A DNA stretch of 64,000 nucleotides from Plasmodiophora brassicae (taxonomy: Eukaryota), in NCBI GenBank assembly GCA_036867785.1, contig CP145423.1:496001-560000 (forward strand), written 5' to 3'. A program made the position numbers and the translations under genes. Of the stretch, positions 41,812-63,522 are shown in pieces (the stretch's first letter is position 1; every line of letters starts with the position of its first letter). The notes beneath the pieces are model-generated. The model was not told where the DNA came from. It saw only the letters and a list, made by a program, of their open reading frames with translations, and ran no database searches.

Positions 41812-42092
41812 CGGATCCACGGCGGTCGGTCGGAGCTCACCTCGCAGGCCGCACGGCGAACCTCATGCATCGGGAACTACCTACCCTCGGCCACGCCTCA
41901 CCGGCCGCTAATTTTGGGGAGAGCGCTATCGACCGTGACAGTCCTGCAACGTCGTCCGACCCGACGACAGCAGACGAGCCGGGCGTTTGCACTTATAATA
42001 TAGACTCTCTGAAGGTTGTATTACAAACTGTCGACCGGCACGATGCCGAATAGGTACAGAGGGTTCGATGCTTGACGGGAGCCGTTAGCAAG

Positions 42093-42552
42093 TTACCTAG
42101 GCGGGTTGCCGGGCGCGTAGAAGTCGTACTCAACGGTCGACATTCGTCGTTCAGCGGCACCGGTTGGCGTTGCCGTGAACATCGTCGTTGGGGACATGCG
42201 CTGGTAGTCGACGTTCCCGATGGACATCCGCTGGAACTGGGCTCGCGCCATGTGCTGGGATGCGCTGGACCAGTCGAAGGCAGTCGACCCGAACGCGGAT
42301 GTCGTCGGCGGTGTCTCAATTCGCATCAGGGATCCGTTCATCTCGTCATAGTGCGGTTGGACTTGCTGCTGGACAGCAGCGAACGGCGAGTTTGGCGCCG
42401 GCTGGAAATGGAACATCGGGTACTGGGTCGGCGCAAACTGCATCTGTTGTGGTTGCTGCTGTTGCTGCTGCTGCTGCTGCTGCCGCTGCTGATGCTGCTG
42501 CTGTTGTTGTGGCGCCTGCGCTTGCTGCGACTGCTGCTGTTGCTGTTGCTGC

Positions 42553-42584
<32 letters not shown>

Positions 42585-43367
42585 TTGTTGCTGCTGCTGC
42601 TGCTGTTGTTGCTTTGGGGAATGCGCCAGCGGTTGAGCGAACGGAATTATGGGGTTGCCAAGTGACGAGGCACCAGCGTTCTGTGGCGGAATGACGGCCA
42701 TGGACATCGATCGTGCCTGGTCGACGTTCATGCTCTCGTTCTTGATATAGACGGGAACCGACTGCGACTGCGGCCGCGTCTGGACGTCGTTCGCCGCCTG
42801 CGATCGCTCTTGCGCTTCCTTCATACGCCGCAGCTCCAGCAACAGCGACTCGTTCTGTTGCCGCAGGAACATAACCTGCTGCTGCAGCTCGTCGATCTGC
42901 GTCCGCTGCTTCGTGATCGTGTCGGTGGACTTCCTCGAGATCAGGTGCAGCAGGTCGAGGCGGCCGCGCAGGAAGTTCGGATGCCGGAACTCGCTTGCGC
43001 CGTTCACCAGGGACGTCTTACTGAACCCGTAGAAGTGGAGCTGCCTGACGAAGGACGCGAAATTGGCGTGCTTGAAGAACATTGGAAGGACTTCGGCGGC
43101 CAGGACGTTCGCGTCTCGCACCAGGAATCCGGTCCCGCACGGCAGCCATGATACGCATTCATGCGCCCCGATCATGGAGTACGTCTTTTGGATGAAGGGC
43201 GTCTGCTTGGCATCGGTCGGCAACGCCTCTCCGTACGTAGCTGGGTCGTCGTCGTGCACTTTAATGGGCGGCACGGGCGCGGATACACCGCGCACCCGCG
43301 TCTGCACCGGGGCGCTCATATCGGACACGCTCCTGCTGCCCGGGCGCGTCAGCGCTTCGGTCGTCAT
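42093..43367 (-). CDS. Heat-shock-factor (HSF)-type transcription factor with coiled coil and polyQ
   Basis: PFIQKTYSMI...VSW...F...LPMFFKHANFASFVRQLHFYGFSK...EFRHPNFLRG, followed by a heptad region. Confidence 0.93.
42443..42612 (-). repeat. CAG/CAA trinucleotide repeat (polyglutamine)
   Basis: (tgc/tgt)n tract on the + strand. Confidence 0.95.
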
Positions 43368-43821
43368 TTTCGTACTGGCTGCGCCGACGGCGGTTCGCGA
43401 GCGTTCGCGACGTGTCGTCTTCCGACGCAATGGCAGATTAGGGCCGAAACTCCGCCGTGCGTGGACTGTGACGGATTTAGACCGGCTGGTCACCCCGCGC
43501 AAAATCGCGCACTTAACGTTCGGGTGCCGCGCGGCCGCCCACTCGCAAAATGCGGCCGCCCGAACCGAACAGAACTCTCTCGATGCCGGTCGCGCTCTGT
43601 GACCCACTGTACCACCCCTCGCACTATAGCCGCCCGGGGTTGACTGTACCAATGGTTAACACACCTTCGAACTTAACGACGGGCAATCGCCAACGTGTGG
43701 CGTACCCGTACGCGAGCGGCTTTTGATTTATTCGTTCCGTTTAGGAATGGATAAATTCCGTTCCTATTCTATCCACTATCAAGTGTGCCAGGGGCGTAAG
43801 CACGCAACAGCTGCATCGCGG

Positions 43822-43970
43822 CGCAGTCGCGACGCTACAGCACCGCAGTCGCGACACTGCAGCACCGCAGACGCGACACTGCAGAACCGCAGACGCGACA
43901 CTGCAGCACCGCAGTCGCGACACTGCAGCACCGCAGTCGCGACACTGCAGCACCGCAGACGTGATGCTGC
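43822..43970. repeat. 22-bp minisatellite, 6 full units and 1 partial
   Basis: Unit cgcagWcgcgacactgcagcac. The last partial unit contains the ATG of the ligase gene. Confidence 0.93.
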
Positions 43971-46162
43971 GCCGGTTGGTCGTGTATGCGCTTCGCGGTG
44001 GCGTCCGCCGCGCTCGCGCAGCGCCGGCAGCGGGCAAGAACGACGGGGCGGTCGCGGCGGCCACGCGGATCACCGAACTTCGCGACTGGCTGTCGCGATG
44101 TAGCCGGGCGTACTACCGCGGGGAAACGCCGCTGGCGACCGACCCGGAATTCGACGCCGCCATGGGCGAGCTCGCCGAACTCGAATCCCGGTTCCCGTAC
44201 ATGAAGTCGCCGTCGTCGCCGACGTCGCAGATCGGCACGCATCCGCTGACGTTCCTCACCGAGCCGCATTCGCAGGCGATCGTGCCGGTGCGGTGCGTCG
44301 GTGCGCTGGACGACGTCACCCTGTACATGCGGCAGGTGCCCGGCGCGACCTGGAGCGTCGAGCACAAACTCGACGGGATGACGGTCGCCTTGCGCTACGA
44401 CCAGAACGGCAACCTCGTCAAGGCGATCTCGCGGGGCGACGGCGAGTACGGCGATGACATCACGTTGGCCGTCAAACGCTACGCGAAGAACGTCCCGGTG
44501 CAGGTCGACAATAAGCTCGGCGCTCCGTTCGAGGTGCGATGCCAGGCCGTCGTAGACGCGAAGAACACGACGACGTCGACGGCGCTGCGTGCGCAGATCG
44601 CCGCCCTGCTTCGTCCGGTCGTGGAGAGCGCCCCGGACGCGTCGAAGGCCATCGACCTGGTCTGCAGTGACCTGCTACGTCAGGACGAGGCGGACGATTC
44701 CGACCACTCGCACTACGACGACATGCGCATGCTGGAGTCGATGGGATTCGCGATCGACTCCGACCTGGTGACCTGCACCGAATCGGAGAACGTGCTGACC
44801 GCGATAGCGCACCTGCAGGCCGGTCGCCAGAGGTACCGGTACGAATGCGTTGGCGCCATTGTCAAGCTGGACAGCTCCGCCGAGCGGCGGCGTCGTCGCC
44901 GCGCGGGATCGGAGTGCTCGGTGGCGTTCATGTTCGATACGGCGCGGGCCGAGAGCGTCCTGGAACGCATCGACATCACGGTCGGCAGGTTCGGCAAGGT
45001 GTCGCCGATTGCTGTCGTCCAGCCTGTCAAACTCGGCCACGTAACCGTCACGCGGGCGACATTGTTCAGCGCCAAGAACGTCGTCGGTCTCGGCGGCGGC
45101 GAACCGGGCGACATTGTCGACCTCCAGCAGTTTGGCGACGTCCTCCCGAAGGTGCTCAAGATTGTCCCGCAGAGCTCCAGGACGACGGATCCGCGTTCGC
45201 TGTTCGAAGTCTGCCCGTGCGGGCGGAAGTCGAAGCTGAAATTCGACGAGGGTGCACTGGACGCCTGGTGCGTCGACGAGGAGTGCCCATCGATTCGGGT
45301 TGCTCGACTGGCGCACGCTGTCTCGAAGGACGCCCTGGACGTCAAGGGTGTCGGCGTCGCGTCCGTAACGCAGCTGGTGCAAGCCGGCCTCGTTCGTGAC
45401 ATTCCGGATCTGTTCCAGCTGCGCAAGCGCGATCTCGTTCTGTTGCCGGGTTGGGATCGCCGAACGGCGACCGCGGCCGTCGCGAACCTCGTTCAAGCTC
45501 GGACGCGCGGCGACCCGCTGGGCCTGCTGAACTGTCTCGGCATTGAGGGCGTCAGTCGGGAAATGTGCCGCCGTCTGCTGAGGAACTTCGGTCTGTCCCC
45601 TGAGCGCGTGCTTCGCGCCGATCTGGACGAGCTTGCCGAGGCGCGTGGTGTCGGCCGTCGTGTGGCGGAGGCGATCGCGAAATTCGCCCAGAGCGAACGG
45701 GGCGCGAACATCATCAAGGCGTTCCGCGACCTGGGGCTGTTCGCGTACACGACTGGCGACAGCACTACCGCCGCGCCCACGTTCCCGATGTCGGGCAAGA
45801 TTGTCGTGCTGTCGGGCAGGTTCAATCGTTTCGACGTCGATGAGCTCAGGGACCGGTTCCGGGCGCTGGGCGCCCGTATCGGCGACCAGGTCACCGCCAA
45901 GACGTCGTTCCTGTTCGCCGGCCGGGACGACGTCCGGTTCAGCCGCAAGATGAAGGACGCCAGGAAGCACGGCGTCCGCGTCGTCCGCGAGGACGAGATG
46001 ATCCAGCTGCTCCAGCTACACGAAGGCGAGGAATACTGCTTCGCCGGGTCGTCCGCGCATATCCCGCTGGGCGTCCGGGCCCCGACGTCGACGTCACCCA
46101 CCTCTGCGACCGCCGATGTCGAAGTCGCCCCACAAGACGTTAATTCAGGGCAACGCGTGTAG
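43964..46162 (+). CDS. ligA: NAD+-dependent DNA ligase (LigA-like), intronless and divergent, with a putative mitochondrial presequence
   Basis: Domain Ia YY...P...DPEFD, motif I EHKLDG, SRGDGEYGDDIT, OB fold VGRFGKVSP...TRATL, Zn finger CPCG...C...C, HhH LDVKGVG and BRCT VVLSGRF...VTAKTSFL. Confidence 0.9.
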   Translation: MLRRLVVYALRGGVRRARAAPAAGKNDGAVAAATRITELRDWLSRCSRAYYRGETPLATDPEFDAAMGELAELESRFPYMKSPSSPTSQIGTHPLTFLTEPHSQAIVPVRCVGALDDVTLYMRQVPGATWSVEHKLDGMTVALRYDQNGNLVKAISRGDGEYGDDITLAVKRYAKNVPVQVDNKLGAPFEVRCQAVVDAKNTTTSTALRAQIAALLRPVVESAPDASKAIDLVCSDLLRQDEADDSDHSHYDDMRMLESMGFAIDSDLVTCTESENVLTAIAHLQAGRQRYRYECVGAIVKLDSSAERRRRRRAGSECSVAFMFDTARAESVLERIDITVGRFGKVSPIAVVQPVKLGHVTVTRATLFSAKNVVGLGGGEPGDIVDLQQFGDVLPKVLKIVPQSSRTTDPRSLFEVCPCGRKSKLKFDEGALDAWCVDEECPSIRVARLAHAVSKDALDVKGVGVASVTQLVQAGLVRDIPDLFQLRKRDLVLLPGWDRRTATAAVANLVQARTRGDPLGLLNCLGIEGVSREMCRRLLRNFGLSPERVLRADLDELAEARGVGRRVAEAIAKFAQSERGANIIKAFRDLGLFAYTTGDSTTAAPTFPMSGKIVVLSGRFNRFDVDELRDRFRALGARIGDQVTAKTSFLFAGRDDVRFSRKMKDARKHGVRVVREDEMIQLLQLHEGEEYCFAGSSAHIPLGVRAPTSTSPTSATADVEVAPQDVNSGQRV

Positions 46163-46325
46163 ACAGTGTATACAGGTTGTGCGGGTCAGCGCGTGGCGTG
46201 CGTCGTACAGCAGGTAGGTAGTTCGGAGCGGCATCGGGTCGGCGCCGGCGTGATTTGCGGGCGCCGCCAGCGGAGCTGCCGAACGGCAAATGCCGTACGG
46301 CATTTGCCTGCGTGTCAGTCTGGTC

Positions 46326-47199
46326 ATGCTGTACATTATCGGGCTGGGCCTCGCCGATGAGGAGGACATCTCGGTCAAGGGCCTGAAGGCGGTGCGCGCG
46401 TGCTCCCGCGTCTACCTGGAGGCGTACACGTCGATCCTGACGGTCGGCGTCGATCGCCTCGAGAAATTCTACGGCCGGCCCGTCGTTGTCGCTGACCGCG
46501 AGATGGTCGAATCGCAATCGGATGCGATCCTCGAGAACGCCGACGTCGAGGACGTTGCGTTCCTCGTCGTTGGCGACCCGTTCGCGTAAGCAGGGCCCTC
46601 GGCGCGGGGCTTCTCAACCTGAATCGGTGTATTTCAGGGCAACGACTCACGTTGACTTCTTGCTGCGAGCGGCCGAGGAGCGCAACGTGGTCGTCAAGAC
46701 GATCCACAACGCGTCGGTGATGAACGCGATTGGGGCATGCGGCCTGCAGCTGTACCAGTTCGGGCAGACGGTATCGATCCCGTTCTTCAGGGACAACTGG
46801 CGGCCGGATAGCTTTTATGACAAGATCAAGGTGAACAAGGACGCCGGGTTCCATACGCTTTGCCTCCTCGACATCAAAGTCAAGGAGCAGAGCGAGGAGA
46901 ACATGCTGCTCGGCCGGCTGATCTACGAACCGCCCCGCTTCATGACCGTCAACGAAGCGCTGTCCCAGATCGTCGAAGTCGAGGAGCGTCGTCAGGAGGG
47001 TGTCTGCCCTGGCGGGACGCGATGCATTGGCGTTGCCCGCCTCGGTGCTGACGACCAGATGATCGTCGCCGGCACCATCGACCAGCTTCGCGATGTCGAC
47101 TTTGGCGCGCCCCTGCACTGCCTTGTCATTGTCGGCGAGACGCATTTCATGGAGGACGACGCGCTTCGTTTCTACAGTGTCGATAAGCTCAAGCAATGA
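46326..47199 (+). CDS. DPH5: Diphthine methyl ester synthase; 2 exons
   Basis: [62 protein letters not shown] and GAPLH. Confidence 0.97.
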
Positions 47200-47856
47200 A
47201 AACCGTGTCGTTTCGCGACTCGCTTTTCCGTCTGCAATGTTCGATCGAGCTGGAAGGCTTCGGCAGCGTCTGTTAAGTGCCTCTTCGGTCGGGTCGTACT
47301 GACCGTTGCCAGATATCGGCAGCTGTGCACTTGCCACGACACGCAGGCGTGTGCCCAGCGCCGACTTTGATGCGTCCCTTGCAGAGAAACGACCGCCTGT
47401 CGCAGGCTGGCTGTGTCGCCTAGGCGGCTGCACTGCCTTATTATGCCAACGTTTGACGCGCGAGCAATCGCAACGCGTTGTCAACCGATACGTTCCTCTG
47501 ATGCAGACAATGTGGCCTATGTTTAGGTTGAGTTGGGTACTGCAGGGCGACAGCGAGAGCGCTTGACACGAAGCGGGTCGCGCGAATGTGTACTGGTAGG
47601 AACAATGACCCGCACGGTTCGTCGTCGGCGGCGTGTACTCCCGATCGATCGCGTATTCTACCACGGTCGTCGACGTCGTGGCTTCAACGACGACGGGTCC
47701 CTCAGTGTCGCCTGCAGGTTTCGCGCCGGGTCACGTTTGCCGAAGTTGCGGGCCCGGTGACGTCGACAAGGCAGGACGTGACGTCACGCCCGACCTGGGC
47801 GCGCGTCCATCTTGCCACGCGATCTTAGCGGGCGTCGGCGCCGAACATTGCCGAAC

Positions 47857-61065: not shown

Positions 61066-63522
61066 ATGGACGTCTGGCGCCGCCTCCAAGTCACCGCGCG
61101 CCGATCGGTGGCGTCCCGGGCGCATCATTCGACCGTTGCGGATCGCTCGGCGCCCGGGCGGTGTCAGGCGTTCGCGGATCGACCCACGATCCCGCTGGCG
61201 GTGGCCACGTTGTCGCAGGAGACGGACGCCGATCGCGGATGGGACGTGTACCGACGCGCGCTGCCGGGCGCGGACACCCGACTGTTCCAGGCCATGATGT
61301 GGTTCTGCATGCGGCACGCGCCGGCGAAGGCCCCGGAGGTGATGCAGGCGGCGGCCGCATCCGGGATCCAGGATCGCCCGTTGCTGATCGCGTTCCTGGG
61401 CGCCTGTCGAGCCGCGTCGCCTCCGATGATGGCGGAGGCCCTGGCGGCGTACGCGTCATCCGGCCCCGGATGCGACGACCGCCTCCTCTACGACCTCGCT
61501 GACATCTGCCGGCGGGCCGGCCGTCCCTGCGCCGCCCTATCGCTCGTCTCGGACGCCATCGACAAGAACGTCAGGTTCGGACCCGGCCTCCTGTCCATGT
61601 TCGCGGCGTGCTGCGCGGCGGCCGGCAGCGAGTCCCCCGACGCCGCCGCCGCCGCCGCCGAGCAACTGCTCAACGTCGTCCGTTCGAACCTGGCCCCCCC
61701 GCCGGACAAGCCGCCGTTCTTCGTCAACGTCGCCAAAGCCCTACTCGCGCATCGTCGCTTTGACTCGGCCGCGTCCGTCCTCACGTTGATGGAGGCGCAC
61801 AACGTCCCGCCGGGGATCCAGATCTACACGCTGATCCTCGCCGGCCTCGCCAGGGCGAATCGCTCCCGTCAGGCGATGGCCGTGTTCCACGCCATGGTGC
61901 GGCGAGGCGTCCCCGTTGACGCGCCCGTGTTCACGTTGCTCGTCAACGCGTGCGGCCGGTGCCGGGACCTGGACGCGCTGCGGTCGCTGCATGCGCACGC
62001 GTACCAGCGGCCGGCTCTGCTGGACGACATTGGCGCCTGCTCGCTGATGTTCGCCTACGATCGTTGCTGGGCGCTGGACGCCGCCGAGCGGATGTTCCTG
62101 GAGCGGTGCGCCGTGTCGGCACCGACGACGGCGATGCTCCACGTGATGATCGTGGCGTACCGGCGCCATGGGCGCCTGGGTGTCGCCGTCGACACGTTCG
62201 AGCGCATGAAGGCGTCCGGGGTGCCGATCCCCGACAGGACACGCCAGAACATGCTCTGCGTGTATTCCAAGGCGGGCCTGGTTGACGAGGCGCTGGACCT
62301 GTTCCGGTCGGCGACGACGAACGTTGACACGTCCGCCTTCGTCATGCTGGTGCAGGCGTGCGCGCGGGATCGTCCCGCGCTCGCCGACCTGCACCGGCAC
62401 GCCATGGAGCGGTCGCTGATGCGTCAGGACGACGTTCTGGTTGCGTTCGTGTCCGCGTACCAGCACGCGGGCGACCTGCCCGCTATCCAGAACCTGCAGG
62501 CGTATGCGTCGGGGACGCTCTTCTGGCAGCACGATGCGGTTCGCAGCGCGTTCATCCTGGCGTACGCGTACTGCAGCAGTATCGACCTGGCCGAACGCGT
62601 GTTCGACGACCGGCGCGCGTCCTGCCTGACGTCCATGGTCGCCGCGTACGCCCAGCACGGGCTCCTGCCGGAAGCCATGGGCGCCTTCCGTCAGTTCACA
62701 GGGGCCGGGTTGCGGCCGAACAGCAACGTGATCGGGCACCTCCTCCAAGCGTGCGCCCGTGCTGGCGCCCTGCACGAGGCAGCGGATCTCGTCTCGGCGC
62801 ACGGTGCCCATTGGGCGCCGGGCCATGCCGTGCACGTCGTCGACCTGTACGGCAGGATCGGCGACCTGGACCACGCCGAGCGCCTCGCTGCCGACGACCT
62901 GCTGTCGCTGATGACCGTTCTCGCCGCTTGCCGATCGCACAAAGACGTGGCTCGTGCCGAACGCGTTCTGGGCCGGATCCGATCGACGGCGCTGTCGCCG
63001 GCGAACGTGCTGGCGGCCGCCTACCGCATCATGTCGGACGTGTACGCGAGCGTTGGCCGTGCTGGCGATGTCGCCCAGCTGCACGACGAGATGCGGGCGA
63101 GGAACCTGACGGTTGTCCCCGGGAGGACCACGGTCATCGTCGACGACCGCGCCGTGCACTTCCGGTCCGGCGACGACGCACACGACCCGAACCTTCGCGA
63201 CGCCCATCGACGTCTGATGAAGGACCTCGAAGCGCACGGGTACGCCACTGACCCGTGCACGGTCGTGTCCAGCGAATCGCCGCTGGACGCGCGACGATCC
63301 GTTCGCGGGCACAGCGAGAAGCTCGCGCTAGCGTTCGCGCTCAGCGCCCCTCTGCCGGCGGGCGCCCCGATCCGCCTGGCGAAAACCACACGGGTCTGCC
63401 CCGATTGCCACGACGCCGCCAAGCGCGTCTCCCAGATCTACGACCGCGACGTCTACCTGCGGGACGAACGACGGCATCACCGGTTCCGGGACGGCCAGTG
63501 CTCCTGTGGAGACGTCTGGTAG
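61066..63522 (+). CDS. DYW-type pentatricopeptide-repeat protein (PPR array, E-like region, DYW deaminase), intronless
   Basis: PPR motifs (IYTLILAGLA...FHAMVRRGVP; LTSMVAAYAQHG...GLRPN; HVVDLYGRIG), PG box (VPGRTTV), HSEKLA, RVCPDCH and RD..RHHRFRDGQCSCGDVW*. Confidence 0.95.
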   Translation: MDVWRRLQVTARRSVASRAHHSTVADRSAPGRCQAFADRPTIPLAVATLSQETDADRGWDVYRRALPGADTRLFQAMMWFCMRHAPAKAPEVMQAAAASGIQDRPLLIAFLGACRAASPPMMAEALAAYASSGPGCDDRLLYDLADICRRAGRPCAALSLVSDAIDKNVRFGPGLLSMFAACCAAAGSESPDAAAAAAEQLLNVVRSNLAPPPDKPPFFVNVAKALLAHRRFDSAASVLTLMEAHNVPPGIQIYTLILAGLARANRSRQAMAVFHAMVRRGVPVDAPVFTLLVNACGRCRDLDALRSLHAHAYQRPALLDDIGACSLMFAYDRCWALDAAERMFLERCAVSAPTTAMLHVMIVAYRRHGRLGVAVDTFERMKASGVPIPDRTRQNMLCVYSKAGLVDEALDLFRSATTNVDTSAFVMLVQACARDRPALADLHRHAMERSLMRQDDVLVAFVSAYQHAGDLPAIQNLQAYASGTLFWQHDAVRSAFILAYAYCSSIDLAERVFDDRRASCLTSMVAAYAQHGLLPEAMGAFRQFTGAGLRPNSNVIGHLLQACARAGALHEAADLVSAHGAHWAPGHAVHVVDLYGRIGDLDHAERLAADDLLSLMTVLAACRSHKDVARAERVLGRIRSTALSPANVLAAAYRIMSDVYASVGRAGDVAQLHDEMRARNLTVVPGRTTVIVDDRAVHFRSGDDAHDPNLRDAHRRLMKDLEAHGYATDPCTVVSSESPLDARRSVRGHSEKLALAFALSAPLPAGAPIRLAKTTRVCPDCHDAAKRVSQIYDRDVYLRDERRHHRFRDGQCSCGDVW

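Follow-up and report, generated by a model that had tools for sequence, protein, structure and literature searches.

Has a DNA ligase of bacterial type given up catalysis in a eukaryotic parasite and been kept for another task? The question is raised by a ligA-like gene in a stretch of 64,000 nucleotides from Plasmodiophora brassicae (the window; assembly GCA_036867785.1, contig CP145423.1, positions 496,001 to 560,000 of the forward strand), and all positions below are counted within this window. A first reading of the bare sequence (the original prediction) had proposed that the protein, here called P0002, keeps the adenylated lysine of LigA, has lost other catalytic motifs and is possibly a pseudo-ligase. 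This is the best-supported reading of P0002, not a proven one, and would make the protein a protist pseudoenzyme whose ancestor was a bacterial ligase gained by horizontal transfer. In its fuller form, that P0002 is a retained non-catalytic paralogue (a dead or crippled ligase) with a DNA-binding role, probably in the mitochondrion, we give it a probability of roughly 60%. The core of the original proposal is supported by the alignment, by scores below the curated cut-offs, by transcription and by an excess of change confined to the nucleotidyltransferase (NTase) and OB domains; several of its details had to be changed, as described below.

Architecture and catalytic motifs of P0002

The coding sequence occupied 43964-46162 on the forward strand and gave 732 aa plus a stop from the ATG at 43964, or 733 aa from an alternative GTG at 43961, so the length of 730 aa proposed before is replaced. 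The frame was open through all 732 codons, with 4-23 stops in each of the other five frames. The G+C content at third codon positions was 0.84, and the codon-position G+C pattern matched that of the neighbouring genes.

The LigA architecture Ia-NTase-OB-Zn-HhH-BRCT was complete in P0002 by Pfam, alignment, AlphaFold model and Foldseek, with domain limits in E. coli numbering which we take to be those described for structure 2OWO. Columns were counted as conserved when at least 90% conserved in bacterial LigAs, and scores were compared with those of the two nearest relatives, P0011 of P. brassicae and P0012 of Spongospora subterranea. An N-terminal extension (aa 1-31, 44057 being the first base after it and 43964-44056 its span) precedes the first aligned residue of E. 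coli LigA; it holds six Arg and one Lys, its first 26 residues include no acidic residue, and the AlphaFold model predicted a short helix in it, with a predicted local distance difference test score (pLDDT) below 50 at residues 1-23. Domain Ia, which binds nicotinamide mononucleotide (NMN) (aa 32-96, 44057-44251), was conserved with 10 of 10 columns kept; its Pfam match was weak. The NTase domain (aa 97-325, 44252-44938) kept 22 of 43 columns and matched the ligase adenylation domain PF01653 at 8e-24 and 85 bits, against 156 and 154 bits in the two relatives; motifs I and Ia were intact in it, and motifs III, IIIa, IV and V and the PMLSL loop were degenerate. The OB domain (aa 326-413, 44939-45202; PF03120, 55.8 bits against 81 and 73.9) was partly degenerate, with the changes T334F, H359F, N360S, R379Q and I384L. 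The Zn finger (aa 414-441, 45203-45286) kept all four cysteines (C417, C419, C436 and C441), the first pair being spaced C-P-C, and the HhH domain (aa 442-596, 45287-45751; Pfam HHH_5 and HHH_2) was conserved except for G521S. The BRCT domain (aa 597-690, 45752-46033), missing from both relatives, matched PF00533 at 39.3 bits (cut-off 21.3) and kept 6 of 10 conserved columns. It is followed by a C-terminal tail (aa 691-732, 46034-46159) which was predicted to be disordered, with pLDDT below 50 at residues 690-732. The earlier claim that the OB, Zn, HhH and BRCT modules are all intact therefore stands for Zn, for BRCT and for most of HhH, and fails for OB, which keeps only 14 of 21 conserved columns.

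Against LigAs of known structure, P0002 gave end-to-end alignments (Thermus filiformis 1dgs, 1.4e-61; E. coli 2owo, 3.8e-58 across residues 35-683). The AlphaFold model, made from an input alignment of 100 sequences, had a mean pLDDT of 85.9 and a predicted template modelling score of 0.70. Only residues 1-23, 597-602 and 690-732 were poorly defined, and within BRCT (aa 611-680) the mean pLDDT was 76-95 per 10-residue block. The structural comparison with E. coli LigA that had been suggested gave LigA structures as top Foldseek matches (2OWO, E 6.5e-43). The model was built on a LigA alignment and therefore shows compatibility with the fold, not function. For the NTase-OB part, the closest clusters in the ESM Atlas were phage and bacterial LigA cores, which was uninformative.

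All seven motif strings of the original prediction were found in frame at the places given for them on the forward strand: HSQAIVPV (aa 102-109, 44267-44290), EHKLDG (aa 133-138, 44360-44377), EVRCQ (within aa 190-196, 44531-44551), RAQIAA (within aa 209-218, 44588-44617), VGAIVK (aa 296-301, within 44843-44866), SECSVAFMF (aa 316-324, within 44906-44938) and QFGDVLP (aa 389-395, within 45125-45148). P0002 was aligned with 239 bacterial LigAs and the two relatives, and residues were numbered as in E. coli K-12 LigA. The intact KxDG motif, which EHKLDG contains, was confirmed: motif I kept E113, K115, D117 and G118, with K, D and G each present in 239/239 bacterial LigAs. Motif Ia (R136-G-D-G) was kept as well, together with R171, R200, R208, R277, G286, K290, R333 and V383, and the domain Ia residues Y22, D32, Y/F35 and D36 were found as Y50, D60, F63 and D64.

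The loss of other catalytic motifs was equally borne out. In P0002 the changes E173Q, D285V, K314M, N201A, G205A, S81P and N360S all replaced a residue present in 239/239 bacterial LigAs, and G172C, I384L and G521S one present in at least 236 of the 239. Y225S altered a site aromatic in 237/239, T334F a site with T in 222/239, and R379Q a site with R or K in 239/239; the changed OB residues T334F and R379Q are nick-proximal contacts. The segment P307-R308-W309 was deleted. The three central replacements could be read directly from the codons: CAG (44543-44545) for Q194 at the site of the motif III Glu (E. coli E173), GTT (44849-44851) for V296 at the site of the motif IV Asp (D285), and ATG (44930-44932) for M323 at the site of the motif V Lys (K314). 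The degeneration seen in RAQIAA was partly upheld, with N201 and G205 lost and both arginines, R200 and R208, kept.

Two curated LigA models gave a consistent picture. For TIGR00575, P0002 scored 358.9, below the cut-off of 444.45, and P0011 passed at 444.6; for NF005932, P0002 scored 352.2, below the cut-off of 369, and P0011 passed at 439.9. P0012 was above one of the two cut-offs, and P0002 was below both though it is the longest of the three. By descent and fold P0002 is a LigA, and it is not filed as a LigA enzyme because three defining residues are replaced and its scores lie below the curated cut-offs.

The roles of the changed residues are described in two papers. In E. coli LigA, E173 coordinates the adenosine ribose 2'-O, Y225 stacks on the adenine, and the adenine ring is bound by K290 and E113 (PMC5052709). 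One catalytic metal ion is coordinated via water molecules by conserved motif I, III and IV residues, the lysine of motif V binds the phosphate of adenosine monophosphate (AMP) and repositions it, and domain Ia orients the NMN leaving group, its only known role, in step 1 (PMC7470946). P0002 would thus have kept the nucleophile and the NMN site and lost the stacking partner of the adenine, the lysine that holds the AMP phosphate and two of three acidic side chains that hold the metal. With the metal ligands and this lysine missing, we infer that none of the three steps of adenylate transfer would proceed at a useful speed in P0002. Alanine scans by the Shuman laboratory reportedly found D285 and K314 essential in E. 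coli LigA.

Could P0002 still be a ligase, with weak or altered chemistry, as a second low-activity enzyme whose status is comparable to that of E. coli LigB? Lysine adenylylation by NAD+ would then go on by way of the intact motifs I and Ia, R200, K290 and domain Ia, and the altered pocket would make the enzyme slow or specialised. The residues K115, D117, G118, E113, R136, R171, R200, R208, R277, G286 and K290 speak for it, and E173Q is isosteric and could still bond the ribose. Against it, E173, D285 and K314 are lost jointly, with Y225 and the P307-W309 segment in addition, and within the covalent nucleotidyltransferase superfamily no active protein is known to do without the residues of motifs III, IV and V together. 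The canonical P0011 also removes the need for such an activity. The published roles pull both ways: domain Ia, all of whose conserved columns are kept, is known only for NMN orientation in step 1, and two of E173, D285 and K314 belong to metal-holding motifs (PMC7470946). On balance, a residual ligase seems to us distinctly unlikely.

Relatives, transcripts and rates of change

When P0002 was searched exhaustively with HMMER against 1.84 billion cluster representatives, 19,357 matches reached E <= 0.001, and among the best 150 of them only P0011 (50%) and P0012 (37%) exceeded 34% identity. Both are named DNA ligase (NAD+) (NAD+, nicotinamide adenine dinucleotide). P0011 (CEO97386.1, PBRA_000730) is encoded on another contig than P0002, and is for this reason a paralogue from the same species. 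Both relatives keep E173, D285, K314 and the other catalytic residues changed in P0002, so the canonical paralogue which the original prediction had recommended looking for exists, P0011 having every listed catalytic residue. A search started from P0011 among called proteins of 319-1017 aa found no third copy; below P0002 and P0012, all matches were LigAs of bacterial type with <= 41% identity. P0002 was the single member of its 90% cluster.

Arg-rich N-terminal extensions were common to P0002, P0011 and P0012. The three proteins also had the first zinc knuckle as C-P-C (45212-45286 in the window for P0002), against C-P-x-C in 239/239 bacterial LigAs; by the alignment this spacing is a clade-specific deletion of one residue in the zinc knuckle. 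P0011 and P0012 end just after HhH and carry no BRCT, which holds for 3/3 records of the P0011 cluster. Either BRCT was lost once or twice in these putative ligases, or the gene models miss an exon.

In a tree of 44 sequences P0002, P0011 and P0012 formed one clade with a value of 100 in the Shimodaira-Hasegawa-like approximate likelihood ratio test (SH-aLRT), apart from P0007, the one other eukaryote-like LigA in the tree. This grouping is what would be expected if the plasmodiophorid lineage acquired a bacterial ligA once. The quick tree paired P0002 with P0011 (SH-aLRT 90), and the alternative that pairs P0011 with P0012 was 4.18 log-likelihood units better (approximately unbiased test, p-AU 0.558). 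The test did not reject this alternative, and either order of duplication and speciation would be compatible with the trees. A metagenome scan with P0002 as query found no relative, and when the alignment of the three proteins served as query, 46 loci came up; none exceeded 35% identity, which marks them as bacterial-like LigAs, and they were left aside.

The evidence for P0002 expression is at the RNA level. Twenty public runs from 8 studies contain the stretch and none is recorded as RNA; four runs from four studies were guessed to be RNA and were compared over 41900-47500. In 4/4 a contig lacked the 52-base GT..AG intron (46586-46637) of the adjacent diphthine synthase gene DPH5, and for this reason we infer that they hold spliced RNA. 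In 4/4, one contig spanned the entire P0002 open reading frame, from 43929 or 43932 to at least 46176, unspliced and with 0 differing letters (X17, 43932-46176; X19, 43929-46185; X18 and X6, starting at 43929 or 43932, reaching about 47200 and lacking the DPH5 intron). The P0002 gene is transcribed, the transcribed region being 43929-46185 (+); these contigs are uninformative on expression level, transcript ends and strand, and their depths were not used for ranking. An assembly or sequencing artefact was rejected, as the RNA contigs of 4/4 runs had 0 differing letters. RNA editing back to the canonical residues, considered because the window holds a PPR-DYW gene, was likewise set aside on the 0 differing letters of the same four runs, in which contigs may hide rare variants. 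In 2/4 runs a contig was continuous from the P0002 gene into DPH5 across the 127-base spacer, which suggests overlapping or read-through transcripts and not necessarily one transcript.

Whether the protein is maintained or decaying was approached by comparing relative rates, with the consensus of the bacterial LigAs as outgroup, a choice that holds whichever way the clade branches inside. P0002 had 82 unique substitutions and P0011 had 25 (p = 3e-8), and the end branch of P0002 was 3.6x longer (1.13 vs 0.31 changes/site). By domain, the numbers for P0002 and P0011 were 40 and 7 in NTase (p = 1e-6), 14 and 4 in OB (p = 0.03), 7 and 4 in Ia (not significant), 1 and 1 in Zn (not significant) and 19 and 9 in HhH (p = 0.09). 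The bacterial outgroup was preferred because the trees are compatible with either inner branching order; with Spongospora as outgroup instead there were 64 against 41 substitutions (p = 0.03), a result that is not relied on.

The conserved columns followed the same division. In P0002, P0011 and P0012, respectively, 22, 35 and 33 of 43 were kept in NTase, 14, 20 and 17 of 21 in OB, 10, 10 and 9 of 10 in Ia, 6, 6 and 6 of 6 in Zn, and 9, 10 and 11 of 13 in HhH. P0002 lost 28/64 in NTase and OB together and 4/29 elsewhere (p = 0.005); compared with P0011 its column loss gave p = 0.0004 in this core and p = 1 elsewhere (4 vs 3 of 29). Judged by these counts, only NTase and OB show the excess of change in P0002, and the relative-rate pattern favours purifying selection outside the putatively dead site.

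In a simple neutral simulation, in which point substitutions alone acted on the P0002 frame, 22% of the runs kept it free of stops at 43 amino-acid changes, 12% at 56 and 0.85% at 116, the last number of changes being the core's excess rate extended over the whole gene. The gaps between P0002 and P0011 were all in frame, including a 5-residue deletion and a 3-residue insertion near motif V. The open frame, the domain pattern and the in-frame gaps together argue against neutrality of the whole gene.

These results bear on another explanation, by which the gene would be a superfluous copy that has begun to decay, an expressed and still open pseudogene whose core was degraded first by chance and which has no function. 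The canonical paralogue, the long end branch, the solitary position of P0002 in its 90% cluster and the high G+C, which makes stops rare, would all be expected from it, and if about 43-56 amino-acid changes were neutral, 12-22% of the simulated frames would survive. It accounts poorly for Ia, Zn and HhH, which are without significant change excess over P0011 and equal to it in column loss outside the core, and for gaps that are without exception in frame. BRCT, which P0011 lacks, is kept and confidently folded in the P0002 model, full-length transcripts occur in 4/4 runs, and the core's excess rate over the whole gene would leave the frame open in just 0.85% of simulations. We consider early decay unlikely.

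A possible role beside the canonical paralogue

As a retained pseudo-ligase, P0002 would bind duplex DNA through Zn, HhH and BRCT, and could perhaps bind NAD+ or NMN through domain Ia. The DNA clamp, nick sensor, nucleoid protein and altered chemistry named in the original prediction are candidate roles, with some OB contacts close to the nick themselves replaced (T334F, R379Q). The kind of Arg-rich N-terminal extension that it has in common with P0011 would send both proteins to the mitochondrion, where sealing would fall to the canonical P0011. BRCT enhances the DNA binding of LigA (PMC7470946), and a Deinococcus LigA without BRCT showed normal nick sealing and weaker binding of double-stranded DNA (PMC10504179). 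The Deinococcus result suggests that BRCT serves for binding and that P0011 can be an active enzyme in its absence.

Several points weigh against the pseudo-ligase reading. When unique substitutions in the core were set against those in the remaining domains, the difference was borderline (Fisher p = 0.06), HhH had changed more than in P0011, though not significantly (19 vs 9), and had lost one glycine, G521, and the open frame by itself is compatible with recent decay because 12-22% of simulated frames survive. No orthologue of the degenerate P0002 was found in the protein-database and metagenome searches. The mitochondrial location comes from the N-terminal composition only. K115, D117, G118, R136, R200, R208, R277 and K290 are intact, as are all conserved residues of Ia, which exceeds the needs of a dead enzyme and would be compatible with residual adenylylation or NAD+ binding. 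The retained domain Ia and motif I are the worst fit to a dead enzyme, and they leave room for binding of NAD+ or NMN without turnover.

The reversed patterns of the two paralogues allow a more specific proposal, which we regard as quite improbable: P0011 kept catalysis and lost BRCT, and P0002 did the reverse, keeping BRCT, Zn, HhH and an intact domain Ia and serving as a non-catalytic DNA-binding factor of the mitochondrial nucleoid that senses breaks or NAD+ and marks nicks or hands them to P0011. A horizontally acquired ligA would then have been duplicated and its ancestral tasks divided between P0011 and P0002. A complex prediction of the P0002 BRCT (aa 597-692) with P0011 gave a score of 0.01 against a mark of 0.32, and counts neither way. 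If the proposal were true, no natural pseudo-ligase among the NAD+-dependent ligases would precede P0002, and the pair would amount to a LigA split over two proteins.

Among known systems, E. coli LigA (2OWO) has the same six-module architecture and fold as P0002, which differs from it in being nuclear-encoded in a eukaryote, in its N-terminal extension, in the replaced catalytic residues and in the deletion of P307-W309. The nearest relatives, P0011 and P0012, show the reverse pattern to P0002, with catalytic residues kept and no BRCT. E. coli LigB is likewise a diverged LigA paralogue beside a canonical one. LigB has no BRCT and only two of the zinc-finger Cys, yet its catalytic motifs are present and its activity, though low, can be measured; P0002, unlike LigB, keeps BRCT and four Cys and loses the catalytic motifs. 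The LigB model matched P0002 weakly (112.7 bits, cut-off 498), and neither this score nor the pattern of losses makes P0002 a LigB.

More distant parallels come from three articles. The prozyme of S-adenosylmethionine decarboxylase (AdoMetDC) in Trypanosoma brucei is likewise a retained duplicate without catalytic residues (PMC5201418). Yeast Dnl4 (ligase IV) is a DNA ligase with a structural role independent of catalysis (PMC3694833). Paulinella is likewise a rhizarian with a nuclear gene for a bacterial-type LigA serving organelle DNA; that protein targets the chromatophore, is presumed to be active and is unrelated to the question of a dead copy (PMC7826189).

In literature searches of main texts, no naturally retained and catalytically degenerate NAD+-dependent ligase was found, nor any description of plasmodiophorid LigA genes, which supplementary files of P. 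brassicae genome papers might list. PMC7317818 was considered as a source on P. brassicae ligases and set aside, its one mention of DNA ligase being a cloning reagent.

If P0002 is merely a decaying duplicate, it is ordinary. NAD+-dependent ligases are regarded as a uniform, essential class of bacterial enzymes and as drug targets. A maintained pseudo-ligase would be a natural experiment on what the LigA modules do free of catalysis (NAD+ binding by Ia, clamping by Zn-HhH, and BRCT), and a case of a horizontally acquired bacterial replication enzyme that was duplicated and repurposed in a eukaryotic parasite. The P0002/P0011 pair also bears on the maintenance of mitochondrial DNA in a major crop pathogen.

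Neighbourhood of the gene

The neighbouring genes were eukaryotic and encoded a transcription factor of heat-shock factor (HSF) type, diphthine synthase, a TLC-domain protein, a ZIP transporter and a pentatricopeptide repeat (PPR) protein of DYW type. The P0002 gene is nuclear and belongs to the eukaryote P. brassicae, a context that the original prediction had missed.

A tandem repeat of 22 bp with 6.2 copies (43822-43958, +; Tandem Repeats Finder) ends 5 bases before the ATG. Its unit was unique to this place in the window (6 matches, 0.02 expected by chance), and short RNA contigs on 43844-43958 in 4/4 runs indicated that it is at least partly transcribed. It is probably part of the 5' leader or promoter of the P0002 gene.

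Upstream, the gene of the HSF-type DNA-binding protein (42093-43652, -) is divergent from the P0002 gene, with about 300-500 bases between them. It encodes a long polyglutamine tract from a trinucleotide repeat of 53 copies (42454-42613), at which the RNA contigs were interrupted. Downstream, DPH5 occupied 46290-47199 (+), including its intron.

Further downstream, 61066-63522 (+) encoded a PPR protein of 818 aa that carries an E motif and ends in a DYW deaminase domain (2.4e-24). Proteins of the PPR-DYW type perform C-to-U RNA editing in plant organelles, and the presence of this gene suggests organellar RNA editing in P. brassicae.

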